A DNA stretch of 64,000 nt from Candidatus Multivoradales bacterium (GCA_965248925.1 CBDFLE010000006.1:1952001-2016000), one strand, 5' to 3'. Shown: positions 5,366-49,236, counted from the first letter of the stretch. The notes: generated by a model from the letters alone, not told the origin. Numbers and translations are program-made.

Positions 5366-8017
5366 TTAGGGCCCGCGAAGGATGGCTTCGATCCCTATGG
5401 ACGGGAGTCTGCGGGAGGCTTCGCCCCCGTAGAACGACAGATCGGTATCGACCGGCGCTTGCAGGCTGCGCTTCTCTTTGACAAAAGAAAGCAGCTCGTC
5501 GTCGCTGTCGATCTCTAAGTGGCGTTCGAGTTCGTCGGCGCCAGGAAAGCGCCCCAGCCCTCGCCGCCAAGCGCGGCGGGCCTCGTCGTAGCGGCCCGCC
5601 TTGGCATAGGCTTGGCCGAGAGCGACGTAGACTCGCTGCTGGTAGGGCGCCACCACTCCGCTCTGCTCTTGCAGTTCGGCACAGCGTTCCAGGTCGCGAG
5701 CAGCGTCGTCGGAATGACGCAGCGCCCGCGGCCAATGCAGATGGTTCATCCCCCGCGAGTAAAGCGCCAGCCAAGAATCCGGCTGGGCCGCCAGCACCTT
5801 GTCGGCCTCGTCCAGACCGCGCTTGGCCACGCTGCCCTTGCAGACGATCGCCGCCAGCCCGCCGCAGGCCGGGATCTTGTCGACGTAGGCCACCGACAGC
5901 TCGATCCGCCAAGCCGGGTTCTTGGTGGTGTCGGCGCGCTCGGTAAGAAAGGCGATCGCCCGGTCGTGAGCATCGTACTCGGCCGCCAGACGCCGGTAGT
6001 CGCTGGCTTCGCGAGCCTGGTAGACACCTCTCAGCAGGCTCTCAAGTTCTGCCAACTGACCCTCGATCTCAGCCGCCGAGGGCAGCGCCCGCTTGGCTAC
6101 CTGGGTGCCCGGCAAGGGACTCAGGCGCCGCGGCTGGGAGATCTCCAGCTCCCGCCGCTCGGCATAGCTGCCGGGATCCTGGTGCAAAGTGAGTATTTGA
6201 TCGACTGCCACGTCCTCGAAATACTGTAAACCGCCGTCTGGCCAGCGTACTTCCAGCATCTCCACCAGATCCACCGTACCGAGACCAAAATGTAGTCTCG
6301 GCTCGCTCTGCCCCGCGAAACCGTTGCCTCCATCGCGCTCACGCACCAGCACCCCGGCGGCGGTCGCCAGGGTCACCCGCGTGCCGATGCCGTCGCGATT
6401 GACCCCGCTCGACGGATCGGTCACCAGCGCCACCCGCAGCCAATGCGCCCCTGCCGCCGTCTGGCGGTGATCTAGCAAACCATTGCGAAACAGCTGCGGA
6501 GCGTCGCCCTGATTGGCGATGAACAGATCCAGGTCGCCATCGTTGTCATAGTCCACCACCGCGATGCCGCGGCCATCCCGGTCGCTGTCCAGGCCGGTCG
6601 GGCCGGCGTTTTCAGTGAAGGCTAGCAGCCCCTCGTTGCGCCACAGCCGAGTGCGTTCGTAGCCCGAGAACGAGCGGTCGCCGATCGCCGGCCAGTTGCG
6701 GGCGTCGTCGGAATGCTCGCCGGTCACCGTCCACGACGCCAGGTCGTACCAATAGCTGCCCTCGCCGGCACTGATGAAGCCGTTGACCGCCACGATGTCC
6801 AAATCGCCATCGTTGTCGTAGTCGAAGAACTTCGCCCCCCAACCCCAACCGCCATCGTAGGCCCGCGCCTCCAGGCCGACATCGGTGAAGTGGATCTCGC
6901 CCGACTCGTCCGGGCCCTCGTTGTACCAGAGCATGTTGCCCTCTTGCAGGTACTCGGCGGTGGTGATGTTGGAGACGTAGATATCTAGCCAGCCATCGTT
7001 GTTGAAGTCACCAAAGTCGACGTTCATGCCCTTCTTGGTGTCGTAGCCCAGAGCACTCTCGGTGGCGTTGCGCCAGCTGCCCTCGCCGTCTGAAAGGAAG
7101 AGCTGGTCGGGACCGAAATCGTCGGCGGCATAGAGATCGGGCCAGCCGTCGCCGTCCAAATCCGCCGCTCCCACCGCCAGAGTCCAGCCCGGGTCAGCGA
7201 CCCCGTGCTTCTCGGCGACCTCGACAAAGCTGCCGTCCCCCTGCTGCTGGTAGAGGTAGTTGGCGCCGCCGTTGCGGGCGCGCTCGAAGTCTTCGTGCAT
7301 GATCCGGGTCGACCCCAGATGCCACAGATCGACCTCGCGGAAGTAGTTGCCAACGTAGATATCCAAAAGACCATCGCGGTCGAAATCGAGAAAGATCGCC
7401 GCGTTGCCATTCGCCCACTCGGTGCCCGGCTGGCCATCGCGACGCTGGAACACCTCGGCGGTGACCTCACGGAAGGTGCCGTCGCCCTGGTTGCGATATA
7501 GCGAGTCCGTGCCCCAACGCACCAGGTAAAGATCCACCAGACCATCGTTGTCGTAGTCCCCCCACACCGCGTCCATGCTGGTGCCGCGAGCATCGTTGGC
7601 TTGCGCCAAGCCGGCCTGCTCCCCCACCTCGGCGAAGCTGCCGTCGCCCTGGTTGCGATACAGCAGGTTGGGCTCCCCCTTGCGCGACTCGGTGACGAAG
7701 AAATCTTGCCAGCCGTCGCCATCGTAGTCGGCACTGGCCACCGCCGCGCCGACGCTCGCCATCCACGACATGATGTTCGACAACTGAGCGTCCAACACCG
7801 GCCGATGATGGCGGTGGGTAATCCCCGCGCTCAACGCCACGTCGACGAAGAGCGGTTCTTCCGCCTCTGGCGGTAACGACTGCGAGGGCGAGGAGCAGGC
7901 CGCAAACCAGCCTGCCAGCAGCAACAACCCGACGGTCGAAAGTCCAACAGCAGTCACCGACGCGAATTTCTTGAAACAGCCATTCCAAACACTAAGAGTC
8001 ACAAAGCTCTTGCTCAC
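5366..8017 (-). CDS. unbV: UnbV/E4-like (CRTAC1: FG-GAP propeller + ASPIC/UnbV) lipoprotein with C-terminal TPR domain, copy 1
   Basis: Many DxDxDGxxD repeats; ASPIC/UnbV signature NRDGIGTRV...GGNGFAGQSEPRLHFGLG...VRWPDG; lipobox-like FAAC; TPR-like helices at the C-terminus; follows pksE-unbL. Start chosen at GTG 8017 (GGAGG RBS); ORF open to 8074. Confidence 0.85.
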   Translation of the reverse strand: MSKSFVTLSVWNGCFKKFASVTAVGLSTVGLLLLAGWFAACSSPSQSLPPEAEEPLFVDVALSAGITHRHHRPVLDAQLSNIMSWMASVGAAVASADYDGDGWQDFFVTESRKGEPNLLYRNQGDGSFAEVGEQAGLAQANDARGTSMDAVWGDYDNDGLVDLYLVRWGTDSLYRNQGDGTFREVTAEVFQRRDGQPGTEWANGNAAIFLDFDRDGLLDIYVGNYFREVDLWHLGSTRIMHEDFERARNGGANYLYQQQGDGSFVEVAEKHGVADPGWTLAVGAADLDGDGWPDLYAADDFGPDQLFLSDGEGSWRNATESALGYDTKKGMNVDFGDFNNDGWLDIYVSNITTAEYLQEGNMLWYNEGPDESGEIHFTDVGLEARAYDGGWGWGAKFFDYDNDGDLDIVAVNGFISAGEGSYWYDLASWTVTGEHSDDARNWPAIGDRSFSGYERTRLWRNEGLLAFTENAGPTGLDSDRDGRGIAVVDYDNDGDLDLFIANQGDAPQLFRNGLLDHRQTAAGAHWLRVALVTDPSSGVNRDGIGTRVTLATAAGVLVRERDGGNGFAGQSEPRLHFGLGTVDLVEMLEVRWPDGGLQYFEDVAVDQILTLHQDPGSYAERRELEISQPRRLSPLPGTQVAKRALPSAAEIEGQLAELESLLRGVYQAREASDYRRLAAEYDAHDRAIAFLTERADTTKNPAWRIELSVAYVDKIPACGGLAAIVCKGSVAKRGLDEADKVLAAQPDSWLALYSRGMNHLHWPRALRHSDDAARDLERCAELQEQSGVVAPYQQRVYVALGQAYAKAGRYDEARRAWRRGLGRFPGADELERHLEIDSDDELLSFVKEKRSLQAPVDTDLSFYGGEASRRLPSIGIEAILRGP
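5428..7871. repeat. 2.44 kb near-identical direct repeat, copy 1 (partner 16578-19021)
   Basis: Constant offset of 11150 bp; only 7 substitutions spotted by eye, apparently all silent. Confidence 0.95.
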
Positions 8018-8036
8018 GGACGGCCTCCAGACGAGG

Positions 8037-8995
8037 TTAGGCAGTAGCAGGGAAGGGCAGGGGAACGGCAACATCCGGCAAGAAACATGCCTCGATGCGC
8101 TGTCGCCAGACCTCGAAAGCGGGCAACTCTGCGCTGCCCCGAGGCAGACCGAGCAGCGTTTGAGAGGTCACTTCGGCCGCCTCACCAGCACTCATGCCGC
8201 AGAAGACGCGGCTAGCCTGCTCGGTGTGCTCGGTGACAATGCCCGCCCGTATCCTGGCCTCGGCGGCAAAAGCGGCGCCCTGGGCGAGAGCCGAAGCAAA
8301 GTCCGCCGCCACGGTGCGCAGGGTTTCGAGAGCCACCCGGTCGACGCCGCCGGCATAGCTGGCGGCGAGACCGACTCCAGCCCACAAATCAGCGTGGCGA
8401 GTGTCCGCGAAGGTAGCGATGGTCCGCGGAATTTGCCGCACGTCGGCGCCTTCGACAAACCACAGACTACGCCCCAGGCCCTGGTCGAAGGCCCGCCGAG
8501 CGTAGCCCCGCACCCGCCGAGGAATCCGCTGTGGCCCGTCTACAGAATTTCGCCCATGGAAGAACCCTTGATGAAAGCCATAGCCATCGTAGGCCAGCCA
8601 AACCAGTAGCGGATCGAGCCGCGCCACGTTGCGCTGCAGGCCAAATGGCAGGCGAGCCAACGCCCAGCCAGCCCCGACTTGCACCATGTAAATGTGGGCG
8701 CTACCGCCCCCTTGGCAAAATTCTTCGAAACGCCGTCGTGGCCAAGGGCTCAAGCGATCCACCAAAAAGAGCGACATCGCCGCACCCTCGTAGGCAAAGC
8801 CGCGAAATTCCTCGTCGACTTCGTCAAGCTGGCGGCAGAGGGGAACACTGGCACTTTCTCCAAGCGCCGCGTGATAGCCCTCAAGGAAGGTCAAACCAAC
8901 CCGCTCGATCCGTTCCCAAACCTGGGCATCGCCACCACGAAATCCGCGCCGAGAGAAACGCACCTGATCGGTAGACAGAGACAATAAGCGACGGG

Positions 8996-9008
<13 letters not shown>
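8037..9008 (-). CDS. unbL: DUF1702 family enediyne-cluster protein (E3/UnbL), copy 1
   Basis: RGFAYEGAAM, HIYMVQVGAGWA, WLAYDGYGFHQGFF, DQGLGRSLWF, DLWAGVGLAASYAGG, LAQGAAFAA motifs; overlaps the pksE stop by 13 nt. Confidence 0.88.
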
Positions 9009-15010
<6,002 letters not shown>

Positions 15011-15357
15011 CAATCCTCCCGTTCTAGGTGTTAAAAGAACCCAGGCGGAGTCAAATTAGAGGAGTGACTATATACGAATACATCAATTAGCGTTGTTTTT
15101 CCCTACTCTTTTGCTGACCGAAAAAACCACGCTATTTCGCAAGATCGAAGAAGTCAAATAAGCCTCCCAAGAGATATGAGAACCCCCTGCTCCAGCCCAG
15201 CCGACAACAGAGTCGCAATCCAGTCAACCATGAAGTCGACAGGTTGTTCCCCTCTCGGCTCGGACACCGAGCGGGTTTCACCAACGCTTGCCGGATGAGC
15301 TAACAGCACGAGAGCACTTCCTCAAGAACAAAAGAAAAATCATTGCTGGCCGTCTAG

Positions 15358-16230
15358 TTAGGCGGAACTCTCCATCTCAAGTTCCAAACGCTGCGCCAGG
15401 CGTTCGTCGATCAGCAGCGGCAGAGCCATCAACAGTGGGGGATTGAGCAGCCGTGGAGGTTGCAGCACTAAGTGAGGTCTGGCGGTCAATTGGCCCGCTG
15501 CGTCGGGCTCGAAAGGGCCGGCACTGGCCAGCCCACGGATCGCCTCGCTGTGGCGCAGAAAATCGAGCGGCCCTTCAAAGCGGTCCATGCCGGCGGCAAA
15601 AACAAAGAATCGCTCACCCGGAGGAATCGCCAGCTTGAAGTCGCCGATGGCCGAAAGAATGGTGCAAGATCGGGGTCTCGACTGCGGAATCGGTGAGTCG
15701 AACAGGCCGATGAAGATAAATCCCGCCAACGGCTGCTCGGCTTCAATCGTACCTTCGAGCATGGCTACCGTGGTATTCGGCACCTCGGGCTCCACCAACA
15801 TTTGCACTTGTTCGGCATCGGTGGCGTACACCCGGCATAACTGGCGAAACTGGCCCGGCGCCAAACCCACCAGTTGAGTGAATCGGCTACTGAAGGTTCC
15901 CAGGCTGTTGTAGCCGACTTCGAAACAGATATCGAGCACACTCTGCTCGGTGGTCATCAACAACTTCTTTGCTGCTTCCAAACGCAAAGCACCGAGAAAC
16001 TGCATCGGTGGAATTCCGACTAGCTCACGAAAAATGCGATTGAAATAGTAGGGGCTCATGCAAGCCAGGTCAGCCATCTCGTCGAGAGTGACCTCTTCGG
16101 TCAGGTGCTGGTGCATGTGCTTGACGACCCGTTCGATAGCTTGCTGATGACTAGCGAGGGTTTCCTCGTGGGCCACCTGGTGGGAAGGCCACAGCGCCTC
16201 GGCGGTGGTAGCACTGCCAACATTCGGCAT
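15358..16230 (-). CDS. AraC-family transcriptional regulator (N-terminal HTH pair, C-terminal effector domain)
   Basis: TLDEMADLACMSPYYFNRIF...RLEAAKKLL...ICFEVGYNSLGTFSSRFTQLVG; GGAGG RBS; lies directly upstream of pksE copy 1. Confidence 0.9.
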   Translation of the reverse strand: MPNVGSATTAEALWPSHQVAHEETLASHQQAIERVVKHMHQHLTEEVTLDEMADLACMSPYYFNRIFRELVGIPPMQFLGALRLEAAKKLLMTTEQSVLDICFEVGYNSLGTFSSRFTQLVGLAPGQFRQLCRVYATDAEQVQMLVEPEVPNTTVAMLEGTIEAEQPLAGFIFIGLFDSPIPQSRPRSCTILSAIGDFKLAIPPGERFFVFAAGMDRFEGPLDFLRHSEAIRGLASAGPFEPDAAGQLTARPHLVLQPPRLLNPPLLMALPLLIDERLAQRLELEMESSA

Positions 16231-16560
16231 CAGAATCAACCTCCACGGTTAAGCAAACTGGTACCCAGAAAGAGCGAGCCAGAGTGCGAATAACAACTCG
16301 AACAGCGATTAATGCATCGATAGGTCTCTATGAGAGTACTGGAGAAATTCTGATTCTCAAAATAGAGATAAATTTCAAGCCTGATAGGTAAAGACTTGGC
16401 GCCCTGGCGCTTCGGCAAGTAATGCCGGGGCCTCTTGGCTTTGAGGAGATCGGGGCGGTGGCGAATTCCGCCCAGCTACGCCGGGGGGCGAGAGGACTAG
16501 GGGACGAAACCCCTCGCTAGATCATGACGTCCCCGGTGGGACGGAGAATCCCCACTCTGG

Positions 16561-19137
16561 TCAGCTGCCTTCGCTGTCGTAGAACGATAGGTCGGTATCG
16601 ACCGGCGCTTGCAGGCTGCGCTTCTCTTTGACAAAAGAAAGCAGCTCGTCGTCGCTGTCGATCTCTAGGTGACGTTCGAGTTCGTCGGCGCCAGGAAAGC
16701 GCCCCAGCCCTCGCCGCCAAGCACGGCGGGCCTCGTCGTAGCGGCCCGCCTTGGCATAGGCCTGGCCGAGAGCGACGTAGACTCGCTGCTGGTAGGGCGC
16801 CACCACTCCGCTCTGCTCTTGCAGTTCGGCACAGCGTTCCAGGTCGCGAGCAGCGTCGTCGGAATGACGCAGCGCCCGCGGCCAATGCAGATGGTTCATC
16901 CCCCGCGAGTAAAGCGCCAGCCAAGAATCCGGCTGGGCCGCCAGCACCTTGTCGGCCTCGTCCAGACCGCGCTTGGCCACGCTGCCCTTGCAGACGATCG
17001 CCGCCAGCCCGCCGCAGGCCGGGATCTTGTCGACGTAGGCCACCGACAGCTCGATCCGCCAAGCCGGGTTCTTGGTGGTGTCGGCGCGCTCGGTAAGAAA
17101 GGCGATCGCCCGGTCGTGAGCATCGTACTCGGCCGCCAGACGCCGGTAGTCGCTGGCTTCGCGAGCCTGGTAGACACCTCTCAGCAGGCTCTCAAGTTCT
17201 GCCAACTGACCCTCGATCTCAGCCGCCGAGGGCAGCGCCCGCTTGGCTACCTGGGTGCCCGGCAAGGGACTCAGGCGCCGCGGCTGGGAGATCTCCAGCT
17301 CCCGCCGCTCGGCATAGCTGCCGGGATCCTGGTGCAAAGTGAGTATTTGATCGACTGCCACGTCCTCGAAATACTGTAAACCGCCGTCTGGCCAGCGTAC
17401 TTCCAGCATCTCCACCAGATCCACCGTACCGAGACCAAAATGTAGTCTCGGCTCGCTCTGCCCCGCGAAACCGTTGCCTCCATCGCGCTCACGCACCAGC
17501 ACCCCGGCCGCGGTCGCCAGGGTCACCCGCGTGCCGATGCCGTCGCGATTGACCCCGCTCGACGGATCGGTCACCAGCGCCACCCGCAGCCAATGCGCCC
17601 CTGCCGCCGTCTGGCGGTGATCTAGCAAACCATTGCGAAACAGCTGCGGAGCGTCGCCCTGATTGGCGATGAACAGATCCAGGTCGCCATCGTTGTCATA
17701 GTCCACCACCGCGATGCCGCGGCCATCCCGGTCGCTGTCCAGGCCGGTCGGGCCGGCGTTTTCAGTGAAGGCTAGCAGCCCCTCGTTGCGCCACAGCCGA
17801 GTGCGTTCGTAGCCCGAGAACGAGCGGTCGCCGATCGCCGGCCAGTTGCGGGCGTCGTCGGAATGCTCGCCGGTCACCGTCCACGACGCCAGGTCGTACC
17901 AATAGCTGCCCTCGCCGGCACTGATGAAGCCGTTGACCGCCACGATGTCCAAATCGCCATCGTTGTCGTAGTCGAAGAACTTCGCCCCCCAACCCCAACC
18001 GCCATCGTAGGCCCGCGCCTCCAGGCCGACATCGGTGAAGTGGATCTCGCCCGACTCGTCCGGGCCCTCGTTGTACCAGAGCATGTTGCCCTCTTGCAGG
18101 TACTCGGCGGTGGTGATGTTGGAGACGTAGATATCTAGCCAGCCATCGTTGTTGAAGTCACCAAAGTCGACGTTCATGCCCTTCTTGGTGTCGTAGCCCA
18201 GAGCACTCTCGGTGGCGTTGCGCCAGCTGCCCTCGCCGTCTGAAAGGAAGAGCTGGTCGGGACCGAAATCGTCGGCGGCATAGAGATCGGGCCAGCCGTC
18301 GCCGTCCAAATCCGCCGCTCCCACCGCCAGAGTCCAGCCCGGGTCAGCGACCCCGTGCTTCTCGGCGACCTCGACAAAGCTGCCGTCCCCCTGCTGCTGG
18401 TAGAGGTAGTTGGCGCCGCCGTTGCGGGCGCGCTCGAAGTCTTCGTGCATGATCCGGGTCGACCCCAGATGCCACAGATCGACCTCGCGGAAGTAGTTGC
18501 CAACGTAGATATCCAAAAGACCATCGCGGTCGAAATCGAGAAAGATCGCCGCGTTGCCATTCGCCCACTCGGTGCCCGGCTGGCCATCGCGACGCTGGAA
18601 CACCTCGGCGGTGACCTCACGGAAGGTGCCGTCGCCCTGGTTGCGATATAGCGAGTCCGTGCCCCAACGCACCAGGTAAAGATCCACCAGACCATCGTTG
18701 TCGTAGTCCCCCCACACCGCGTCCATGCTGGTGCCGCGAGCATCGTTGGCTTGCGCCAAGCCGGCCTGCTCCCCCACCTCGGCGAAGCTGCCGTCGCCCT
18801 GGTTGCGATACAGCAGGTTGGGCTCCCCCTTGCGCGACTCGGTGACGAAGAAATCTTGCCAGCCGTCGCCATCGTAGTCGGCACTGGCCACCGCCGCGCC
18901 GACGCTCGCCATCCACGACATGATGTTCGACAACTGAGCGTCCAACACCGGCCGATGATGGCGGTGGGTAATCCCCGCGCTCAACGCCACGTCGACGAAG
19001 AGCGGTTCTTCCGCCTCTGGCAGCCCTGAATGGGCTTCCTCGGCGCAACCACCGAGCACGACGACCAGAGCGACGGCCAACAGCCCGACGAGCAACACAA
19101 GACTCGCGACGGCGAAATGGAGGGGGGCAGTCTTCAA
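16561..19137 (-). CDS. unbV: UnbV/E4-like lipoprotein with C-terminal TPR domain, copy 2
   Basis: Mature sequence identical to copy 1 in the ORF track but with a different signal peptide (lipobox LGGC) and a different last few residues. Start uncertain: TTG 19137 with a GGGAGA RBS, or GTG 19287. Confidence 0.85.
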   Translation of the reverse strand: MKTAPLHFAVASLVLLVGLLAVALVVVLGGCAEEAHSGLPEAEEPLFVDVALSAGITHRHHRPVLDAQLSNIMSWMASVGAAVASADYDGDGWQDFFVTESRKGEPNLLYRNQGDGSFAEVGEQAGLAQANDARGTSMDAVWGDYDNDGLVDLYLVRWGTDSLYRNQGDGTFREVTAEVFQRRDGQPGTEWANGNAAIFLDFDRDGLLDIYVGNYFREVDLWHLGSTRIMHEDFERARNGGANYLYQQQGDGSFVEVAEKHGVADPGWTLAVGAADLDGDGWPDLYAADDFGPDQLFLSDGEGSWRNATESALGYDTKKGMNVDFGDFNNDGWLDIYVSNITTAEYLQEGNMLWYNEGPDESGEIHFTDVGLEARAYDGGWGWGAKFFDYDNDGDLDIVAVNGFISAGEGSYWYDLASWTVTGEHSDDARNWPAIGDRSFSGYERTRLWRNEGLLAFTENAGPTGLDSDRDGRGIAVVDYDNDGDLDLFIANQGDAPQLFRNGLLDHRQTAAGAHWLRVALVTDPSSGVNRDGIGTRVTLATAAGVLVRERDGGNGFAGQSEPRLHFGLGTVDLVEMLEVRWPDGGLQYFEDVAVDQILTLHQDPGSYAERRELEISQPRRLSPLPGTQVAKRALPSAAEIEGQLAELESLLRGVYQAREASDYRRLAAEYDAHDRAIAFLTERADTTKNPAWRIELSVAYVDKIPACGGLAAIVCKGSVAKRGLDEADKVLAAQPDSWLALYSRGMNHLHWPRALRHSDDAARDLERCAELQEQSGVVAPYQQRVYVALGQAYAKAGRYDEARRAWRRGLGRFPGADELERHLEIDSDDELLSFVKEKRSLQAPVDTDLSFYDSEGS
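16578..19021. repeat. 2.44 kb near-identical direct repeat, copy 2 (partner 5428-7871)
   Basis: Direct comparison of the two sequences. Confidence 0.95.
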
Positions 19138-19408
19138 GGTCGGTCTCCCGATTGCACCGCCACTGTGGCCTGGCGGTAAGTAGTCGCTAGGGTAGCCGCG
19201 GCTGGGCCTCTGCGGGCCAAGCCGAGACCACCTACTGAGTTGCTCTACTTGAAAAGGGAGTGTCGCCAGACGATCTTTATCCACCACCTACCGGCAATTT
19301 CCCCCCATCGGCGACAAAAATCCAAGACAATGACTCCGACTAGAACAAGGACTCCCTCGATCCTGGGAATCCGATGTTCAAGAACCTAGCGCTTGGGAAC
19401 TCAATACC

Positions 19409-21793
19409 GTGAGTCACCGAACAGCGGACAGCTTCGCCAGACCTTTCCTGCGGCTCAGCGAGGCGGCGATTCGCCGGCCTCGATTGGCCCTCACTAGCGT
19501 GCTACTGGTGACCCTGCTGGCGCTACCCGGCCTGTGGCGGCTCGAGCTGCGCACCGATGGCCATGCGCTGGTGCCGTCGGCAGACCCGGTGGTGCTTTTC
19601 GACCGCCAAGTACGCCAGCACTTCAAGCTGCGCGATCCGTTGGTGGTGATGCTGAGCACCTCCCATCCGGACGGCATCTACAACGCCGCCACGATGCGCC
19701 GAGTGCGCAATTTGTCGCAGGCGCTGGCGGCGCTACCAGAGGTTGGCGAGGGGCGGGTCACCAGTCTCGCCACCGAGCGTCGCGATCGAGTCTACGAGGG
19801 TACCTTGAACTTCCGCCCCTACCTCGATCCACTGCCGGAGGACCGCCGGCTGCTCGACCAGCTGCGCGGCGACATCGCCGCCGTCGGCCTGCTTGAGGGC
19901 ACCTTGGTGTCAACCGACCAACACGCCACCGCCATCTTGGTGGGAGTGCCCACGACTACCTCCGACAATGCCCGCCGAGCGCTCGACCGAGTGGCGATCT
20001 TCCGCCAAGTGGAGCACACCGCCAAGGCTTTCGCAAGCCCGCTCGATCGCATCGAGGTGGTGGGGGCGCCGGCCGCCGAGGCCCTGCTCGGCCTGCACCT
20101 TTTGCAGGACCTTGTCCTGCTGGTACCCCTGTCCATGCTGTTGATCGCCACGGTGATGTGGTTGGGCTGCCGGCGACTCTGGGGAGTCGCGTTGGGAATG
20201 ATGGAGATCGGTGCCTGTCAGCTATTTACTTTCGGCCTCTTGGGTTGGTCGGGGGTGCCGGTCTACCTCACTTTGGCAGTCTTGCCGGTAATCTTGACCA
20301 CCATCGGTCTAGCTGACGAGATCCATCTGCTGTGGCACCAGCAAGGAGAACTGGCCAGCGAGCCGGCAGGGGTCAGTCGGCGGCAAACCGTGCGCGCAAC
20401 GATGACCGCCATGACCCGGCCGATCGTCCTTACCACTCTGACCACCAGTCTTGGCTTTGCCTCATTCCTGCTCTCGCCGATCGTCCCGGTGCGCTTCTTT
20501 GGCTTGTTCGCCGCCCTCGGCATCCTCTTCTGCATGCTGTGGTCCCTGGTCGCCGTCCCGGCGTTGATGGTGCTGTCACCGAAGCGCTGGCTGCTCCGCA
20601 AGCGAGCTCCGCGTCAGCCCTCACGGCACTCCTTGCTGACTCTCGGCAGCCGCCACCCACGCTGGGTTCTGGGGCTGCTGGCACTGCTCAGTTTGGGCTT
20701 GGGAGCAGGAGTTTTTCGCCTCCAGGTTCAAGACAGCTGGATCGATGGCTTCGCCCCCAAGAGTACGTTCCGGCAAGCGACAGACGAGGTCAACGAGCGC
20801 TTTTTCGGCACCCACCTGCTCCTCGCTCACCTGACTTTCAACACCCCCGAGGAGCAAATCCCGGCGGTCCTGGATCACCGCGGCCCGCTTCTCGACCCGG
20901 AGCTGCTAAACAAGATTGGCGGCTTCGAGACCTTCGCCCGGCAACGGCCCGAAGTCGGCGGCGTGATTGGGCCGCACAGCCGGCTGGCGGCGGCCAACGC
21001 GCTGCTCACCGGCCGCAAGGAAGAGAACCGCCGGATCCCCGACACGGTGTATTGGGTGTGGAAACTGCTGGGCCACTTCAAGACCGCTCAAGGCGAGCTG
21101 CGGCTGCGGCAGATGATCAACGCCGAACTCGACCAGGCGGTGGTGACGATCTTCCTCAAAGACGCCAACTACCGCCAGACCGAGACTCTGATGGAAGCGC
21201 TGCACAGCTACGCTGAGGAGCATCTGGAAGCCGGTCTCGTCCAACTGCGGCTAGCTGGTGACGTGGCGGTCAGCCAAGCAATGATCCCCGCCATCGTCAA
21301 GACTCAAGTGCTGTCTCTGCTGCTCGCTTTGGGCGGCGCGACCTTGCTGCTAGCGCTGATCTACCGCTCGCTGGCGGCGGCGCTGGCAGCGGTCGGCCCG
21401 GCCATGGTGGCGGTGTTGTGGACCTTTGGCGCCATGGGCTGGACCGGCATTCCCTTAGGCGTCGCCACCTCGATGTTCTGCGCCATCACCCTGGGTATTG
21501 GCGTCGACTATGGCATCCATTTCTTCGAGCGCTACCGACTGGCGGCCAGCCACGGCGCTGAGCAACCGGTGGCGGTCGCGCTGGCCGAAGCCGGCCCGGC
21601 GATCATCACCGACAGCCTGGCGATCGCCATAGGCTTCGGCCTACTCGGTTTTTCGCAAGTGCCGGCCAACGCCCGCTTGGGCCTGCTGGTGGCGCTGGCT
21701 CTAGGCGCCGCCTGCCTGCTGACTCTGCTCGGCCTAGCCGCACTGTTGGAAACTCGCGGCGAGCCGGCGGCAAAGAGCTTGGAATCTATCTGA
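19409..21793 (+). CDS. MMPL/RND-superfamily exporter
   Basis: Two repeats of 1 TM + large loop + 5 TM; conserved TIGLADEIHL and LGIGVDYGIHF helices. Confidence 0.88.
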   Translation: MSHRTADSFARPFLRLSEAAIRRPRLALTSVLLVTLLALPGLWRLELRTDGHALVPSADPVVLFDRQVRQHFKLRDPLVVMLSTSHPDGIYNAATMRRVRNLSQALAALPEVGEGRVTSLATERRDRVYEGTLNFRPYLDPLPEDRRLLDQLRGDIAAVGLLEGTLVSTDQHATAILVGVPTTTSDNARRALDRVAIFRQVEHTAKAFASPLDRIEVVGAPAAEALLGLHLLQDLVLLVPLSMLLIATVMWLGCRRLWGVALGMMEIGACQLFTFGLLGWSGVPVYLTLAVLPVILTTIGLADEIHLLWHQQGELASEPAGVSRRQTVRATMTAMTRPIVLTTLTTSLGFASFLLSPIVPVRFFGLFAALGILFCMLWSLVAVPALMVLSPKRWLLRKRAPRQPSRHSLLTLGSRHPRWVLGLLALLSLGLGAGVFRLQVQDSWIDGFAPKSTFRQATDEVNERFFGTHLLLAHLTFNTPEEQIPAVLDHRGPLLDPELLNKIGGFETFARQRPEVGGVIGPHSRLAAANALLTGRKEENRRIPDTVYWVWKLLGHFKTAQGELRLRQMINAELDQAVVTIFLKDANYRQTETLMEALHSYAEEHLEAGLVQLRLAGDVAVSQAMIPAIVKTQVLSLLLALGGATLLLALIYRSLAAALAAVGPAMVAVLWTFGAMGWTGIPLGVATSMFCAITLGIGVDYGIHFFERYRLAASHGAEQPVAVALAEAGPAIITDSLAIAIGFGLLGFSQVPANARLGLLVALALGAACLLTLLGLAALLETRGEPAAKSLESI

Positions 21794-22881: not shown

Positions 22882-22884
22882 AAA

Positions 22885-24190: not shown

Positions 24191-24295
24191 CTGAACTCCG
24201 GCGGCATCGTCCTTGCTCGACAGCGACACGGGACGATGCCCCCCTCTTGGGTGTCAAAACAGCGCACAAGGACTACCAGCGATAGGTCCTCAAAG

Positions 24296-27200
24296 ATGAA
24301 TCACAGCAGCCCAGCCATCGCCATCGTCGGCCTCGCCTGCCACTATCCCGACGCTCGCAATCCTCGCCAGCTGTGGGAAAACGCGCTCAGCCAGCGCCGT
24401 GCATTCCGCGCCATCCCGCCACAGCGCCTCGATCTCGAGGACTATGGCCGTCTGGTCAGTGACCAGGCCGACGGCACTTATGTCGCCGAGGCAGCGCTGC
24501 TCGATGGTTTTGAATTCGATCGGGTGAAGTTCCGCGTCAGCGGCAGCACCTATCGCAGCACCGACCTGGCCCATTGGCTGGCCCTCGATATCGCCTCACG
24601 TGCGCTCGCCGACGCCGGCTTCGCCAACGGCGATCGACTACCCCGCGACCGCGTCGGCGTCCTGGTGGGCAACACTCTGACCGGCGAATTCTCCCGCGCC
24701 CAGCAAATGCGTCTGCGCTGGCCTTACGTTCGCCGGCAGGTCGCCGCCGAGCTCGCCGCCGAAGGCTGGGACGAGCAACGAAGCAGTGCCTTTCTCGGCC
24801 GCTTGGAGCAGAACTACAAGGCACCCTTCCCAGCACCCACCGAAGACACTTTGGCCGGCGGCCTGGCGAACACCATCGCCGGCCGCATCTGCAACCACTT
24901 CGATCTCCACGGCGGCGGCTACACCGTCGATGGCGCTTGTGCTTCGTCCCTGCTGGCCACCGCTCAAGCCTGCACGGCACTAGCCAACGGCGACCTGGAG
25001 ATGGCTTTGGCCGGCGGCGTCGACCTCAGCCTGGATCCCTTCGAGCTGGTCGGATTTGCCCGCAACGGCGCCCTTTCGCCCGGCGAAATGTTGGTGTTCG
25101 ATCAACGATCCCAGGGTTTCTTGCCCGGCGAGGGCTGCGGCTTCGCAGTGCTAATGCGTCATCGCGATGCGTTGCACCAAGGCTTGCGAGTTTACGCCGT
25201 GATCCGTGGTTGGGGGATCTCCTCCGATGGCAGCGGCGGCATCACCCGGCCAGAGGTCGATGGCCAGGTATTGGCTCTGCAACGGGCCTACCAGCGGGCC
25301 GGTTTCGGTATCGACACCGTCGACTTGATCGAGGGGCACGGCACCGGCACGGCGGTCGGCGACACCACCGAACTCACCGCCCTCAACCGCGCCCGGCGCA
25401 ACTCTACCCCCGGTGAGGCCACGCCGCACCACGCTGCTGTGGGTTCGATCAAGGCCAACATCGGCCACACCAAAGCCGCCGCCGGCCTGGCCAGCTTGAT
25501 CAAAGCCAGCCTGGCGCTCGACTCTCAAGTGCTGCCACCGACCACCGGCTGCAAGCTGCCCCACACCCAGATCACCGGCCCCGCCTCAACCTTACGGACC
25601 TTGCGCCAACCCGAGCCCTGGCCTCTTGGGCGGCCGTTGCGTTGCGGGGTGAGCGCGATGGGTTTTGGCGGCATCAACAGCCATCTGGTGTTGGAGAGTG
25701 CCGAGCCGCCTCGGCGAACTTCGGGCCGGCGCATCGACAGCCGCTTCGGCCCCACCCCCCAAGACTGCGAGATGCTGCTCTTCGCCGGCGCGGATAGCGC
25801 GGAACTGAAACAGAAAGTCGAGCGAGTGAAAGTACGGGTGACCAGCCTGACCCACGCCGAACTCGGCGATTTGGCGGCCGAACTCGCCCGCCGGCTGCCG
25901 GCCGACGCCAACTACCGGTGCGCGCTGATCGCCGCCACTCCCAAGCAGCTGCAAGAGCGCCTCGGCAAGCTACGCCAGGCCCTCGACCACCCCTTGGCCC
26001 GCGGTGCCTCGCATCTCGACCCTGAGCATGGCCTGTTCCTCGGTCATGGCGGCCGCCCACCACGGATCGGCCTGCTCTTCCCTGGTCAGGGCTCGCCCGC
26101 CAGGCTCGGTGGAGGTTTATGGCGCCAACGCTTTGCCAGCGCCGCCGAGGTCTATGCCGGCAGCGACTTGCCCAGCGCCGGGGATGGAGTGGACACCGCC
26201 ATCGCTCAGCCTGCCATCGCCACCGCGGCACTGGCCGGCCTGGAGGTTCTGGACAGCCTCGGCGTCCACGCCACCACCGCCATCGGCCATAGCCTCGGCG
26301 AGCTGATCGCCCTCCAGTGGGCCGGCGCCTATGACAGCGCCGCTCTGCTGCGCTTGACTCATGCCCGCGGCCAGGCGATGGCCGAACTCGGTGAGGCCAC
26401 CGGCGCGATGGCCAGCCTGGGCGCCTCGGCGGCTGATGTGGCGCGGCTGATCGACCGCCTTGGGGTCGACAACCTGACCCTGGCCGGCCTCAACTCGCCG
26501 CGTCAAACGGTCATTTCGGGACCGGCGGAGCAAGTTGTCAACGCCCTCGAGCAGGCTGCCAAACAAGGTTGGCAGACCACCCGCTTGGCGGTTTCGCACG
26601 CCTTTCACTCACCCCTGGTGGCGGCCGCCGTGCCGCGCCTGGAAGAAGCCCTGGCGGCTGAGACTTGGGAGACGCCACGGCGAAGGGTGATCTCGACCAT
26701 CACTGGCCAAGTGCTCGATCCGCAAGCTACCCTAGCGCCGCTACTCGCCGCGCAGGTGACCTCGCCAGTACGATTCGTCGAGGCCTTGCAGCTCGCCGCC
26801 GAACACTGTGACGTGTTCCTAGAGGTCGGCCCTGGCGAAGTCTTGACTGGGCTAGCCAGGGCCACCGTCACCCAGCCGATCCTTGCCCTCGATGTCGGCG
26901 GACCGTCACTAGCCGGCCTACTGCAAGCTAGCGGCGCGCTGTGGGCTCTAGGAGCATCGATCCGGCCGGCGGTTCTGTTTGCCGATCGCTACCACCGGCC
27001 GTTGGACCTGGACCACCAACCCGCCCTGCTGAGCAATCCGTGCGAAGAGGCACCGCGACTGGGCGAAGCGCTGGCCAGAGCCACCCGGCCGCCCAACCCC
27101 CCAGCCTCCGACGACCCTGACCTTGCTCCACCGAGCCTCGCCACAACAGTCGTCAGCAGCGCGACCTCGCCCCTCGAAGTGGTCCACCAGTTGGTCTGTC

Positions 27201-30178
27201 AACGCACCGAGCTACCGATCTCCGCGGTGGACGCGGACAGCCGCATGCTGAGCGACTTGCACCTCAGCTCGATCACCGTCGGGGCACTGGTTTCCGAGGC
27301 CGCGCGGCAGCTCGAGTTGCCGCCGCCAGCGGCTCCCAACGAATACGCCAACGCCACCCTCGGCACCATCGCTCAAGCCTTCGAAGAGCAGCTCAAGAGC
27401 GGCGGCGGCGGGGGCAATACCGATCGCGACACCTTGCCTGCCGGGGTCGACCAGTGGGTCCGGGCGTTCACTGTCGAGCTGCTCGCCCGAGACCTCGAAC
27501 AACGCCCCAGCGAGATGCTCCAGGGCGGGTGGCAAGTGTTTGGCAGCGATCGACATGCACTGCGCGCGACCTTGCCTGAAGTCCTGGCGCAAGCCGCGCC
27601 GGGCGGCGGCATCGTGCTGCTGCTAGCAGTAGGCGATACCGACCGACAGCTCGATTTGATCCTCGAAGCGGCCCGTACCGGGCTCGACCTCGAGCGCTTC
27701 CTGCTGGTCCACCACGGCCACTCGGCGGCCGCAATGGCCCGTACCCTGCATCTCGAATCGCCCTCAACCGCGGTCGGGGTAATCTGTCTACCGGCCTTGC
27801 TCGGCACCGGCGAAGAAGAAGGATGGTGCCACCGGATCGCCGCCGAAGCCAAGGGCCTGAAGGGCTATCGCGAAGCCACCTACGACCTCGATGGGCAACG
27901 CTGGGAACCGCGCCTGCGGACTCTCTCCGAACCGCCCGGGCAGCAGTCCCAAGCCCCGCCCCTCGAAGCCGACGAGGTATTGGTGGTCAGTGGCGGCGGC
28001 AAAGGCATCGGCGCCGAATGTGCCCTCGCCCTGGCCCAAAGTTGGGGCGTGCGCTTGGCGATCCTCGGTCGCTCCGAACCCCAGCAAGACAGCGAACTGG
28101 CGGAGAACCTGCAACGTTTTGCCGCCCAAGGGGTCACCGCGCGCTACTTCGTCGCTGATGTCGGCGATGCCACCGCCGTGGCTCATGCCATCAGCGCCGC
28201 CAGAGCCGAGCTGGGGGAGATTCGCGGCCTGGTGCACAGTGCGGGCGCTAACCGTCCCCAACTACTGGCCAACCTGGGGCGAGCCGATGTCGAGGGTACC
28301 CTGGCGCCCAAAGTGGCCGGCCTCGACAACCTGCTGGCGGCGATCGACTGTGAATCACTCAAGTTGTTGGTCGGCTTCGGCTCGATCATTGCCCGCTCGG
28401 GAATGCCGGGAGAAGCCCACTACGCGCTGGCCAACGAACGCCTGCGGCGGCGACTCGAGGGCTTCGCTGAACTCTTCCCGGAATGCCGCAGCCTATGTGT
28501 TGAATGGTCGGTGTGGTCGGGAGTGGGCATGGGCGAGCGGCTGAGCCAGCTCGAAGCTCTGGCGCGCCAGGGCATCACACCGATTCCCCTCGCCGACGGG
28601 GTCGCCGCGCTGCTGCAGCTGCTCGAACGGCCGACGCCGGTGGCGGTGCTGGTGAGCAGCCGCTTCGGCGAACCGCCAACCCTCGAGATCGAACGACCAG
28701 AGATGCCGCTGCTGCGTTTCCTGGAACGCCGCCGGGTGCATGTCCCGGACGTCGAACTAGTGGTCGATTGTGCAATATCAGAAGACACCGACCCCTACCT
28801 GGCCGACCACATTTTCGACGGCGAGCGCCTGTTCCCAGCGGTGATGGGCTTAGAAGCCATGACTCAGGCTTGGACCGCGCTCACCGGCGGCAGCGGCCCA
28901 CCGCAGATCCGCGACATCCGCTTCGCTCACCCGATCACCGTTGCCAAGGGCAGCACCGCGCAACTGCGATTGGCGGCTTTGACCCGACCCGACGGTGCCA
29001 CCGAAGTAGTGCTGCGCAGCGCAGCGACCGGCTTTGCGGTCGATCACTTCCGCGCCATCTTCGAGCCCGTCGCGGACCCTGCTACCCAGGACGGGGCCGA
29101 CGACGACGTCAATGACCTCTGCGCCGTCGCCATGGCTGAAAGCCAGCTGCTACCCCTCGAACCCCAACGCGACCTCTACGGACCGGTGCTATTTCAACAA
29201 GGGATGTTCCAGCGTCTGCGCGGCTACCGCTGGCTACGTGCTCGCGCTTGCCTAGCCGAGGTCGAAGGCGACCCGCGGGCCCAGTGGTTCTCTACCTACC
29301 TACCGAGCGAGCTGCTGCTGGGCGACCCCGGCGCTCGCGACGCCACCATTCACGCTATCCAAGCCTGCATTCCCCACGCCACCGTACTGCCGGTAGCGCT
29401 CGCCAAGTTGGAACTCGGTGAAGCGCGGCTCGGCGAACGCCGGGTGTTCGGCGCCTGGGAGCGCCAGCGCAACGGAAAAACCCTGATCTACGATTTAGAG
29501 GTGCGCTACGCTGACGGCCGCTTGGCTGAAAGATGGAGGGGGTTGGAACTGCGGGTGGTCGATCAGGCTACTCAAGCTCCGCCCTTGGCAGAGCCGCTCC
29601 TAGGACCCTACTTGGAACGCCGCCTGGGCGATTTGCTGCCCGAGGCAGAGCTTTCAGTGGTGATAAATCGCGACCAGACACCGCAGGCAGAGCGCCGCCA
29701 ACGGAGCGATCAAGCGATCAAGCGCTTGGTCGGGGTGCGGCAGCAGATCTTCCGCCGTCCCGATGGCAAGCCCGAGCTGCCCAGCGGCCATCAGGTATCG
29801 ATTGCCCATGCGGGCGATCTGCTGATGGCGGTCAGCAGCTGTGGCCCGATCGGCTGCGATGTCGAAGCGGTGGCGGAGCGCTCCGAAGAACTGTGGAGTG
29901 ATCTGCTCGGAAAAGGAAGACTCCAACTCTTGCAACTGATGATGCGCAAGTACAGCGAAGATCGCGACCGCGCCGCGACCCGGCTGTGGACGGTGCTCGA
30001 GAGCCTCAAGAAAGCCGGCCGAGCGCCCGACGCGCCGTTGACCCTCGTCGACTCCAGCGAAGACGGCTGGCTGACTTTCGCTTCCGGCCGCCACTGGGCC
30101 GCCAGCGTGGTCATGCCGGCCACAGACGGCGGCCCGGCTACCGCCTTCGCCGTGTTGTCTGAGAGGCCAGAGTGTTGA
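24296..30178 (+). CDS. pksE: Enediyne-type iterative type I polyketide synthase PKSE (KS-AT-ACP-KR-DH-PPTase), copy 2
   Basis: KS DGACASS; AT GHSLG/AFHS; ACP DLHLSSI; KR GGGKGIG and GEAHYALAN; DH YLADHIFDGERLFP; PPTase GCDVE...WTVLESLKKAG. ORF is open from 24236. Confidence 0.92.
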   Translation: MNHSSPAIAIVGLACHYPDARNPRQLWENALSQRRAFRAIPPQRLDLEDYGRLVSDQADGTYVAEAALLDGFEFDRVKFRVSGSTYRSTDLAHWLALDIASRALADAGFANGDRLPRDRVGVLVGNTLTGEFSRAQQMRLRWPYVRRQVAAELAAEGWDEQRSSAFLGRLEQNYKAPFPAPTEDTLAGGLANTIAGRICNHFDLHGGGYTVDGACASSLLATAQACTALANGDLEMALAGGVDLSLDPFELVGFARNGALSPGEMLVFDQRSQGFLPGEGCGFAVLMRHRDALHQGLRVYAVIRGWGISSDGSGGITRPEVDGQVLALQRAYQRAGFGIDTVDLIEGHGTGTAVGDTTELTALNRARRNSTPGEATPHHAAVGSIKANIGHTKAAAGLASLIKASLALDSQVLPPTTGCKLPHTQITGPASTLRTLRQPEPWPLGRPLRCGVSAMGFGGINSHLVLESAEPPRRTSGRRIDSRFGPTPQDCEMLLFAGADSAELKQKVERVKVRVTSLTHAELGDLAAELARRLPADANYRCALIAATPKQLQERLGKLRQALDHPLARGASHLDPEHGLFLGHGGRPPRIGLLFPGQGSPARLGGGLWRQRFASAAEVYAGSDLPSAGDGVDTAIAQPAIATAALAGLEVLDSLGVHATTAIGHSLGELIALQWAGAYDSAALLRLTHARGQAMAELGEATGAMASLGASAADVARLIDRLGVDNLTLAGLNSPRQTVISGPAEQVVNALEQAAKQGWQTTRLAVSHAFHSPLVAAAVPRLEEALAAETWETPRRRVISTITGQVLDPQATLAPLLAAQVTSPVRFVEALQLAAEHCDVFLEVGPGEVLTGLARATVTQPILALDVGGPSLAGLLQASGALWALGASIRPAVLFADRYHRPLDLDHQPALLSNPCEEAPRLGEALARATRPPNPPASDDPDLAPPSLATTVVSSATSPLEVVHQLVCQRTELPISAVDADSRMLSDLHLSSITVGALVSEAARQLELPPPAAPNEYANATLGTIAQAFEEQLKSGGGGGNTDRDTLPAGVDQWVRAFTVELLARDLEQRPSEMLQGGWQVFGSDRHALRATLPEVLAQAAPGGGIVLLLAVGDTDRQLDLILEAARTGLDLERFLLVHHGHSAAAMARTLHLESPSTAVGVICLPALLGTGEEEGWCHRIAAEAKGLKGYREATYDLDGQRWEPRLRTLSEPPGQQSQAPPLEADEVLVVSGGGKGIGAECALALAQSWGVRLAILGRSEPQQDSELAENLQRFAAQGVTARYFVADVGDATAVAHAISAARAELGEIRGLVHSAGANRPQLLANLGRADVEGTLAPKVAGLDNLLAAIDCESLKLLVGFGSIIARSGMPGEAHYALANERLRRRLEGFAELFPECRSLCVEWSVWSGVGMGERLSQLEALARQGITPIPLADGVAALLQLLERPTPVAVLVSSRFGEPPTLEIERPEMPLLRFLERRRVHVPDVELVVDCAISEDTDPYLADHIFDGERLFPAVMGLEAMTQAWTALTGGSGPPQIRDIRFAHPITVAKGSTAQLRLAALTRPDGATEVVLRSAATGFAVDHFRAIFEPVADPATQDGADDDVNDLCAVAMAESQLLPLEPQRDLYGPVLFQQGMFQRLRGYRWLRARACLAEVEGDPRAQWFSTYLPSELLLGDPGARDATIHAIQACIPHATVLPVALAKLELGEARLGERRVFGAWERQRNGKTLIYDLEVRYADGRLAERWRGLELRVVDQATQAPPLAEPLLGPYLERRLGDLLPEAELSVVINRDQTPQAERRQRSDQAIKRLVGVRQQIFRRPDGKPELPSGHQVSIAHAGDLLMAVSSCGPIGCDVEAVAERSEELWSDLLGKGRLQLLQLMMRKYSEDRDRAATRLWTVLESLKKAGRAPDAPLTLVDSSEDGWLTFASGRHWAASVVMPATDGGPATAFAVLSERPEC

Positions 30179-30236
30179 CTGAGAGACCCCAAGCCATCCC
30201 TGGCCAAGTCCACTGAACCGACGCCCAGGAGAATTT

Positions 30237-31196
30237 ATGAGCCGACTGACCCGCCGGCTACTCGGCCTCTCAGAACGCGAGGTGAACTTCGAACATCGCG
30301 GTTTCCGCGGCGGTACCCCTGCCATCCGCGAACACATCGAGACCATCGGCCGCAGCTTTCTCCAGGGCTATCACGCGGCCCTACTCGACCCACGACTCGA
30401 CCGACTAGTGCCCAGGTTGGAAGCTGCGCCCGAGAACCACCGCGGATTCGTCTTCGAGGGCGCGGCCTTGGCCTTGGCCATACTCGATACCCTGGTACCC
30501 GGCCGCCGCAATCGTCTCGGCCGGCTGCTCGCCGACCGCGGCGCCAACCACGTCTACATGGCCCACGTCGGCGCTGGCTGGGCTCTGGCCCGCCTACCCT
30601 TTGGCGGCGCGAGCTTGCTAGCCCGCCTCGACCCCACCCTGCGCTGGCTGGCCTACGACGGTTGGGGTTTTCACCAGGGCTTCTTTGTCTGGCACAAGGC
30701 TGTCGAAGGTCGGCAACAAATACCGCGCCGGGTCGCTAGCGGCTATGCCCGACGGGCTTTCGACCAGGGTCTCGGCCGCAGCTTGTGGTTCCTCGAAGGT
30801 ACCGAAGTAGCACGTATCCCACGGACCATCGCCAGCTTTGCCGACCACCGCCAGAACGATCTTTGGAGCGGTATCGGATTGGCCGCGGCCTACGCTGGCG
30901 GCGTCGACCGGGCGGCACTAGAAACCCTGCGCGCCGCCGCCCGCGGCTGCACCGCCGAGCTAGCCCAGGGAGCCGCCTTCGGCGCCGAAGCCCGCCAGCT
31001 CGCCGGCAATCTCGGCCCACACACTGAACTCGCCTGCCAGGTGCTGTGTGGGCGAGACGCCGCGACCGTGGTCGAAATTACCCGCCAAACCGGTTGCGAC
31101 CTACCGCCGGGATCCGAGGAGTTGCCCGACTACGAAATCTGGCGTCAGCGCCTGCGCCACGCCTTCTCAGACGAGGCCCGCAGCGCGGTGGCCTGA
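30237..31196 (+). CDS. unbL: DUF1702 family enediyne-cluster protein (E3/UnbL), copy 2
   Basis: Same motifs as copy 1 (HVYMAHVGAGWA, WLAYDGWGFHQGFF, DQGLGRSLWF); AGGAG RBS. Confidence 0.88.
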   Translation: MSRLTRRLLGLSEREVNFEHRGFRGGTPAIREHIETIGRSFLQGYHAALLDPRLDRLVPRLEAAPENHRGFVFEGAALALAILDTLVPGRRNRLGRLLADRGANHVYMAHVGAGWALARLPFGGASLLARLDPTLRWLAYDGWGFHQGFFVWHKAVEGRQQIPRRVASGYARRAFDQGLGRSLWFLEGTEVARIPRTIASFADHRQNDLWSGIGLAAAYAGGVDRAALETLRAAARGCTAELAQGAAFGAEARQLAGNLGPHTELACQVLCGRDAATVVEITRQTGCDLPPGSEELPDYEIWRQRLRHAFSDEARSAVA

Positions 31197-49232: not shown

Positions 49233-49236
49233 CGTT

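Follow-up and report, generated by a model that had tools for sequence, protein, structure and literature searches.

A duplicated enediyne-type polyketide synthase cassette with envelope proteins in place of E4 and E5 in a diderm bacterium

The enediyne cassette, as exemplified by C-1027, calicheamicin and dynemicin, joins an iterative polyketide synthase of the enediyne type (PKSE, the E gene) to E3 (UnbL), E4 (UnbV), E5 (UnbU) and E10. Here we describe a variant of this cassette in a 64,000-nucleotide stretch of DNA from a Candidatus Multivoradales bacterium—hereafter the window, with coordinates counted from its first letter—where positions 5366 to 31196 hold ten genes, including two PKSEs on opposite arms of a divergent locus. 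The host genome, 7.98 Mb in six contigs with a completeness of 96.9%, probably belongs to the Acidobacteriota. A first-pass annotation of the window had proposed a twin-PKSE, enediyne-like system in which the product is exported and loaded onto secreted proteins. The underlying observation is confirmed, with corrections, and its interpretation is partly supported. As judged by homology across the whole genome, E, E3 and E10 are kept in the absence of E4 or E5, and what stands in place of the latter two is a set of envelope proteins only: two UnbV-TPR lipoproteins, a transporter of the HAE3/MMPL type and two secreted barrels.

Two synthases and one old duplication

All ten genes of the initial inventory were recovered where it had placed them, by open reading frame (ORF) listing and by Pfam and NCBIfam scans of the window. 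The minus-strand arm comprises UnbV2, an AraC-family regulator, PKSE1, E3a and UnbV1, and the plus-strand arm an MMPL transporter, the secreted proteins SP1 and SP2, PKSE2 and E3b; a gap of 121 bp separates the divergently transcribed UnbV2 and MMPL genes. PKSE1 (8996-15013, minus strand; 2005 aa) is an iterative type I polyketide synthase in which Pfam recognizes KS, AT, KR and DH domains, and its end overlaps the start of E3a (8037-9008, minus), a DUF1702 protein of the UnbL/E3 type (PF08012, E 6e-112). PKSE2 (24236-30178, plus; 1980 aa), the second such synthase, carries the same four Pfam domains and is followed 58 bp later by E3b (30237-31196, plus; DUF1702, PF08012, E 4e-105). Across the whole genome, PKSE and DUF1702 genes number precisely two each. 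The initial count of two PKSE, two E3, two UnbV and two SP genes with one MMPL and one AraC gene—a 2:2:2:2:1:1 layout—holds within the window; three genes upstream fall outside it, which encode an E10 thioesterase, a TPR/FG-GAP protein and a third, frameshifted SP.

Several lines of sequence evidence support the assignment of PKSE1 and PKSE2 as true PKSE-type enzymes. Both follow the order KS-AT-ACP-KR-DH-C-terminal domain, the ACP being placed from the alignment alone, and the best match in the PDB to an isolated AT domain is that of the PKSE2 AT region to DynE8 (E 6e-61). Relative to the synthase of a Streptomyces plasmid cassette, PKSE2 is 46% and PKSE1 44% identical, in alignments that span residues 1-1960 of 1963. 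The KS Cys/His/His, AT GHSLG and glycine-rich KR (NADPH-site) motifs, whose patterns draw in part on the alignment of the two copies, are present in both. When 43 PKSEs are aligned, the 41 sequences other than this pair agree at 300 columns, each with no more than one exception; PKSE1 keeps 292 of these, and so does PKSE2. Both synthases therefore look catalytically intact, and the retention of 292 of 300 near-invariant positions in copies that are only 53% identical argues for long purifying selection on each. The description of two intact, diverged PKSE genes with open frames, each coupled to a DUF1702/E3 gene, stands.

The twin arrangement traces to duplication rather than to repeated acquisition. 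Identity between the arms is 53% for the PKSEs, 58% for the E3 proteins and 52% for the SP proteins, and an inverted-repeat match of 71-77% between the arms persists. A Streptomyces-rooted tree of 44 full-length PKSEs joins PKSE1 and PKSE2 as sisters with a Shimodaira-Hasegawa-like approximate likelihood ratio (SH-aLRT) support of 100, which rules out two independent acquisitions. Their own sister group is a Lysobacterales pair, again with an SH-aLRT of 100, and the nearest relatives overall are this pair and Thermoanaerobaculia genomes. E3a and E3b are likewise each other's nearest rows in the E3 tree, within the same neighborhood. Because the PKSE copies are sisters and the E3 copies nearest to one another, the two PKSE-E3 pairs can be attributed to a single old inverted duplication within this lineage.

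A different history is suggested for the UnbV genes. UnbV1 and UnbV2 had been taken as diverged copies, which proved incorrect: the proteins are 97% identical, and blastn aligns 5419-7871, inside UnbV1, with 16569-19021, inside UnbV2, over 2,453 bp at 99.6% identity with 10 mismatches. The genes differ only at their 5' signal/lipobox ends. The pattern suggests that duplication or gene conversion took place recently, on top of the much older duplication of the remainder. The presence of two cassettes does not by itself set this genome apart. For example, another genome of the host's phylum has two complete sets on separate contigs, with an SP gene in each, and the Streptomyces clavuligerus megaplasmids have two E3 places. 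Two scans of metagenome contigs found no relatives of the twin layout.

A cassette without E4 and E5

The two UnbV genes (UnbV1, 5366-8074, and UnbV2, 16561-19287, both minus) encode FG-GAP and UnbV_ASPIC domains followed by C-terminal TPRs, as recognized by Pfam, and UnbV1 matches the CRTAC1 structure 9etn (E 3e-18). Both 5' ends specify a hydrophobic stretch that closes in a lipobox-like cysteine ('...AGWFAAC' in UnbV1, '...VVVLGGC' in UnbV2), so that the two CRTAC1-like products are probable lipoproteins. Of the earlier label 'UnbV/E4 lipoproteins', the UnbV_ASPIC domain and the lipobox-like ends hold good and E4 orthology does not. True E4 proteins from different phyla are 42-63% identical to one another; UnbV1 and UnbV2 reach 30-33% against E4s (30% for UnbV1 against a Streptomyces E4), and a paralogue elsewhere in the genome is nearer to UnbV1, at 43%, than any E4 is. 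This calibration rules out E4 orthology despite the common Pfam domains, and with UnbV1 and UnbV2 as the best matches, far under the E4 identity range, the genome has no E4 orthologue. The UnbV_ASPIC set is itself a large expansion in this genome, with about thirty FG-GAP/UnbV_ASPIC (CRTAC1-like) paralogues, several of them clustered near C6:4.25-4.27 Mb and 4.70-4.75 Mb.

Nor was an E5 orthologue found in the genome by tblastn with four E5 queries, three acidobacterial and one from Streptomyces. The nearest E5-like gene belongs to the RnfD family (C5:1463072-1464304). It is an unlikely E5, being 29-33% identical where true E5s from different phyla share 45-66%, lying beside a DUF2330 gene and residing on another contig.

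E10 is present, at a distance. With the thioesterase that comes after the PKSE in a related genome as query, the sole strong match in the genome is a 144-aa hot-dog thioesterase (G000:C6:1941204-1941638; L032:9204-9638), 10.4 kb ahead of the window start and 16 kb from UnbV1. It matches CalE7 (E 2.9e-49), SgcE10 (E 3.7e-46) and DynE7 (E 1.8e-38) and is 55% identical to a Streptomyces E10. The possibility that the rest of a conventional cassette lies elsewhere in the genome is thus realized for E10, and not for E4 or E5. The E10 stop overlaps the start of a 1,120-aa TPR/FG-GAP protein, after which comes a third SP gene with one frameshift near L032:13540. The whole stretch (L032:9204-14277; G000:C6:1941204-1946277) has probably become separated from the same cluster, which would thereby extend beyond ten genes.

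How unusual is this gene content? An E3 alignment scan with one genome per species returned 527 loci, and the counts that follow are from the best 80, annotated with up to 10 kb per side; many of these loci reach contig ends, so the counts are lower bounds. About 50 of the 80 are from Acidobacteriota and 11 from Cyanobacteriota, the rest being from Planctomycetota, Verrucomicrobiota, Pseudomonadota and others. Alongside the E3 common to all 80, E4 occurs in 72, E5 in 65, PKSE in 64, E10 in 39, SP in 26, AraC in 16 and MMPL in 11, and the order is nearly always E3-E4-E5-PKSE-E10, as in two Streptomyces loci. Where a PKSE is present (64 loci), E4 accompanies it in 62 and E5 in 60. The PKSE loci that lack E5 are L043, L047, L049 and L109, and those that lack E4 are L043, which reads E3-PKSE-E10, and L109, which reads E3-PKSE. 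Paired adjacent DUF1702 genes (E2/E3-like) occur in the acidobacterial cassettes L035, L039 and L061, as in the Streptomyces loci L113 and L115.

The closest counterpart to the window is L047, from a metagenome genome. It has a UnbV-TPR gene, two MMPL genes (each 54% identical to that of the window), AraC (54%), SP, E3 (54%), PKSE (50.5%) and E10 (65%), and no E5; by sequence it amounts to the gene set of the window in single copy. Its UnbV-TPR protein is 61% identical to UnbV1 over 883 aa and is the sole one of this type among 69 E3-linked E4-class ORFs, the other 68 being canonical. The locus is therefore best described as a rare E4/E5-less variant that L047 also represents. E3 itself was found in 6 of 151 genomes searched in the host's class, all from one order, and a genome of the host's own order carries E4-E5-PKSE-AraC-SP beside MMPL and E10.

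Cassettes of the PKSE type are common in other bacteria than actinomycetes and have already been published. Passages of PMC10308959 report PKSE-type KS domains from many phyla beyond the actinomycetes; the initial premise of a single, actinobacterial PKSE leaves aside this record and the 527 E3 loci. What is new here is an E4/E5-less, duplicated, UnbV-TPR-bearing form of a known cassette type.

Secreted barrels, transporter and flanking genes

SP1 (21892/22006-22881, plus) and SP2 (23255/23267-24190, plus) are, as first described, paralogous secreted proteins, 52% identical. Their sequences read as bearing Sec-type signal peptides (ending ...PAQA ahead of HD in SP1 and ...PAAA ahead of SN in SP2), seven cysteines and a TSP3-like, Asp-rich 'VDTxxDGxPD' loop. 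Neither has a Pfam family or an NCBIfam match, 99 family members gave single stray matches only against Pfam, and Foldseek against the PDB returned nothing at E 0.001 or better; membership of a known family was rejected on these grounds. In the ESM Atlas the proteins fall with unnamed clusters, commonest in Acidobacteriota, at 0.89-0.91, with DUF6073 and DUF6004 as weak, unconfirmed leads at 0.76-0.80. A word-indexed search of 5.8 billion proteins yielded 18 members, some SP proteins being 79-84% identical, and a full HMMER scan yielded 411 representative clusters at E 0.001 or better, the few named ones being Thermoanaerobaculia.

The family is linked to PKSE cassettes across phyla. In the host's phylum, 11 of 401 sampled genomes gave SP genes, and so did 26 of the 80 E3 loci, where they always lie directly beside a cassette gene: no more than 600 bp from E3 in 17 loci, just after E10 in three, as tandem pairs in three, and between E4 and E5 in the cyanobacterial loci. 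At least five phyla are represented among the SP-bearing loci: Acidobacteriota, Cyanobacteriota (6), Planctomycetota, Armatimonadota, Nitrospirota and one further phylum. A survey of nine SP places in other genomes, whose counts are not fully independent because some of the 80 loci perhaps come from the same genomes, found four beside a PKSE, one beside MMPL without a PKSE and four as domains of larger proteins. Some members bear PEP-CTERM or IPTL-CTERM tags; one, for example, carries PEP-CTERM. Actinomycete cassettes gave no SP, either in two Streptomyces loci (hidden Markov model search, E up to 10) or in a plasmid collection (tblastn). The papers searched contained no description of the SP family, of an E4/E5-less cassette or of a non-actinobacterial PKSE product, and in them the association of this barrel with PKSE cassettes across phyla appears to be undescribed.

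Structure prediction provides a fold for the family. An AlphaFold2 model of SP1 built from 99 sequences (mean predicted local distance difference test, pLDDT, 89.2; predicted template modeling score, pTM, 0.82) is all-beta and establishes the predicted fold as an eight-stranded up-and-down beta-barrel. Among 48,161 chains compared by VIA-align, the top match, one of fold class, was DynF (6ubl; Z 9.1, root-mean-square deviation 3.6 Å over 142 residues, 13% identity)—to our knowledge the sole lipid binder from an enediyne pathway with a solved structure. As passages of PMC8725005 describe, DynF binds palmitate in its lumen, and without the orthologue Sgd15, required at an early stage of PKSE-product processing, sungeidine biosynthesis yields no intermediate. 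Because of the cysteines, the calcium-type loop, the variable C-terminal tails and the sorting tags, we favor a soluble or anchored secreted barrel for SP over one integral to the outer membrane.

The transporter gene (19409-21793, plus) encodes a resistance-nodulation-division (RND) protein with PF03176 MMPL in two stretches (E 1e-25) and Patched and Sterol-sensing domains. Its match to the HAE3 family TIGR00921 (E 2.4e-51) scores 174.7 bits, under the cut-off of 351.9. The predicted recurrence of these accessories was borne out by the neighborhood comparison, with SP in 26 and MMPL in 11 of the 80 loci and the whole set in L047. A direct hand-over from MMPL to SP gains no backing from co-occurrence, as discussed below. 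Elsewhere, at L019/L020 (G365:C1:2020438-2023569), an MMPL gene 47% identical to that of the window adjoins a gene of the SP family in a neighborhood free of PKSEs out to 20 kb, which suggests that an MMPL-SP module is able to work without a PKSE. The AraC-family gene (15358-16239, minus; HTH_18/HTH_AraC) has homologues in 16 of the 80 E3 loci, and an AraC gene is annotated in a Streptomyces cassette too.

Further genes flank the ten. Just past E3b, an ORF at 31411-32268 (plus) combines a hydrophobic N-terminal stretch with a metzincin-like zinc motif, 'HELGHFHGLTH'; it has no Pfam or NCBIfam match and is single-copy in the genome. An FG-GAP/VCBS-repeat gene (32365-33897, plus) contains five 75-nt repeat units and an in-frame TAG at 33184-33186, at a point where neighboring units carry Trp ('GVWV'). 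Beyond it, a 1,132-aa STAND-like protein (33986-37384, minus) with AAA_16 NTPase, winged-helix and TPR regions may be a regulator; in another genome's cassette, a CHAT-TPR protein adjoins the SP gene (L027:10215-13598). A MacB-type exporter at 48036-52324 (minus), with two FtsX/MacB permeases, an HlyD adaptor and a putative ABC ATPase ORF (50436-51182), may, by analogy with a similar set directly 3' of E10 in another genome (L029:1972-4828), be part of a wider export machinery. On the other flank, an NtrC-type sigma-54 activator (3963-5315, plus) is cut by an in-frame TGA at 4683-4685 into ORFs 3963-4685 and 4692-5315 of the same frame. The stop falls at what we take to be the expected conserved glycine of the Walker-B 'GGTL' and is a nonsense mutation or a sequencing error.

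Proposed pathway, alternatives and known systems

We read the locus as a duplicated and remodeled enediyne-type cassette whose product is an exported polyene-derived lipid handled in the envelope and not a classical enediyne, and put the probability of this reading at roughly 0.58. Each PKSE would prime itself and build an ACP-bound conjugated polyene. The single E10 would release this polyene, as CalE7, SgcE10 and DynE7 release the products of their PKSEs, and E3 would act on it in the cytoplasm. The RND pump would then move the hydrophobic product across the inner membrane, and outside the cytoplasm the DynF-like SP barrels and lipid-anchored propellers would hold or process it. Because E4 and E5 are absent, a polyene-derived lipid or pigment is the more likely end product than a cyclized 9- or 10-membered enediyne.

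A number of observations weigh against this proposal. Its weakest link is direct coupling of MMPL to SP, since no more than 2 of the 80 E3 loci have both. The SP family is also not confined to such settings: in four other genomes it forms a domain of large proteins with no PKSE within 10 kb, and other paralogues among the roughly seven in the host genome lie away from any PKSE, UnbV or MMPL gene. The structural match to DynF is tied with NspA (Z 8.9) and OmpA (Z 8.8), both within one Z unit of it and followed by avidins, YceI-like polyisoprenoid binders and designed barrels, and therefore speaks to fold class and not to homology. Foldseek found nothing significant for the SP1 model and placed DynF at rank 5 (E 0.5), and DynF 6ubl was missing from the matches, at E up to 10, of a 99-sequence SP profile to the sequences of the PDB. 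A C-terminal phosphopantetheinyl transferase domain in PKSE2 has sub-threshold Pfam matches only (4PPT_N, E 0.0027; ACPS, E 0.0062), and PKSE1 has no Pfam match to such a domain, not even a weak one. Finally, E10 is parted from the cluster by some 11 kb that carries two-component, sigma-54 and ABC-permease genes, and the frameshift in the third SP gene and in-frame stops in two nearby genes mean that some decay or sequencing error is present in the region.

Could the locus make a true enediyne by unconventional means? UnbV-TPR would then stand in for E4, the RND pump or the RnfD-like protein for E5, and SP would serve as carrier or apoprotein, close to the chromoprotein idea of the first-pass annotation. 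UnbV1 and UnbV2 are, narrowly, the best genomic matches to a Streptomyces E4 (146 versus 119 bits), a distantly E5-like gene does exist on C5, the SP fold resembles DynF of a 10-membered pathway, and E3 and E10, both kept, have the enediyne cassette as their only known setting. Against this, the near-universality of E4 and E5 in PKSE-bearing loci (62 and 60 of 64) implies that both are needed for the usual chemistry, and UnbV-TPR is far under orthologue-level identity. Nor were a P450, a flavin reductase E6, an epoxide hydrolase or genes for a sugar or aromatic moiety seen in the window, unlike the Streptomyces loci, and no self-resistance or apoprotein homologue was detected. Enediyne apoproteins were absent from the 50 VIA-align rows, the Foldseek rows and the PDB sequence matches, an absence that does not exclude them. 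Chromophore loading onto SP1 and SP2 we infer only, and we consider an enediyne product unlikely.

An account in which the SP proteins are general surface or outer-membrane barrels of the OmpA/NspA kind, unrelated to the polyketide and near the PKSEs by regulation or chance, is unlikely too. It would explain why NspA, OmpA, PagL, OprF and OmpW score nearly like DynF, why most of the paralogues lie away from the cluster, and why some members carry sorting tags or sit within large proteins. It fits poorly with the 26 E3 loci, out of 80 and drawn from five phyla or more, in which SP directly adjoins a cassette gene, set against 11 of 401 sampled genomes of the phylum. The conserved cysteines, the Asp-rich loop of calcium type, the long and variable tails at the C-terminus and the PEP-CTERM tags better suit a soluble or anchored secreted domain. 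Least probable is a decaying or silent remnant that lost any defined product with E4/E5 loss and E10 separation, for although E4 and E5 are missing, E10 is unlinked, the third SP gene is frameshifted and the neighboring sigma-54 activator and FG-GAP gene contain in-frame stops, the 6-kb frames of the two PKSEs, which keep 292 of 300 positions at 53% identity, are uninterrupted, as are those of the two E3 genes, the E5-less gene set is intact in L047, and E4/E5-less units recur in L043 and L109.

Returning to the exported polyene, a bolder extension would make the SP family an unrecognized secreted, DynF-like carrier of PKSE-derived polyenes in at least five non-actinomycete phyla, with the twin synthases here feeding SP1 and SP2 through the RND pump, so that a diderm envelope would bear polyene or enediyne-like chromophores bound to protein. 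We hold this to be doubtful, if appealing; were it true, these orphan pathways would carry out some of their chemistry or storage outside the cytoplasm. We know of no product for any PKSE cassette outside the actinomycetes, and if that of the present locus is merely a polyene lipid, it would be a modest addition to the orphan-cluster catalogue. Even so, the locus offers a natural dissection of the cassette—PKSE, E3 and E10 without E4 or E5, in two diverged copies—that could reveal the role of E3 alone. The SP family, in turn, is a concrete new candidate for study, being secreted, beside cassette genes in a third of loci and closest to DynF in predicted fold.

The minimal actinomycete cassette, as represented by the Streptomyces plasmid loci L113 and L115, is the first point of reference. 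Annotation there names a CRTAC1 protein, an 'enediyne biosynthesis protein', a type I polyketide synthase, a thioesterase, a flavin reductase and two DUF1702 proteins. The likeness to the window lies in end-to-end PKSE homology, E3 beside the PKSE (E3a is 44% identical to a Streptomyces E3), E10 and AraC. In contrast, the window's host is a diderm outside the actinomycetes, its genome has no E4 or E5 orthologue, E10 is unlinked and the PKSE-E3 pair is duplicated in inverted orientation; an RND pump, SP barrels and UnbV-TPR lipoproteins come in addition, and E6, P450 and other tailoring genes are missing. The non-actinobacterial orphan cassettes are nearer, with the same PKSE and E3 clades and with SP, AraC and MMPL as recurrent accessories, although most keep E3-E4-E5-PKSE-E10 where the window has PKSE-E3 only.

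Two protein systems provide further templates. DynF of the Micromonospora chersina dynemicin pathway resembles the SP1 model as an eight-stranded up-and-down barrel encoded beside a PKSE; it differs in having no sequence-level similarity to SP, whose members add a signal peptide, conserved cysteines and the Asp-rich loop. MmpL3, HpnN and the BstA sterol system are RND lipid exporters with extracytoplasmic lipid-binding partners. The window's transporter is under all NCBIfam cut-offs and its kind is paired with SP at few E3 loci, unlike these exporters; it is like them in its HAE3/MMPL architecture with a sterol-sensing-like domain, in a gene beside candidate secreted lipid binders, and in an MMPL-SP pair that occurs apart from any PKSE in a genome of the same order.

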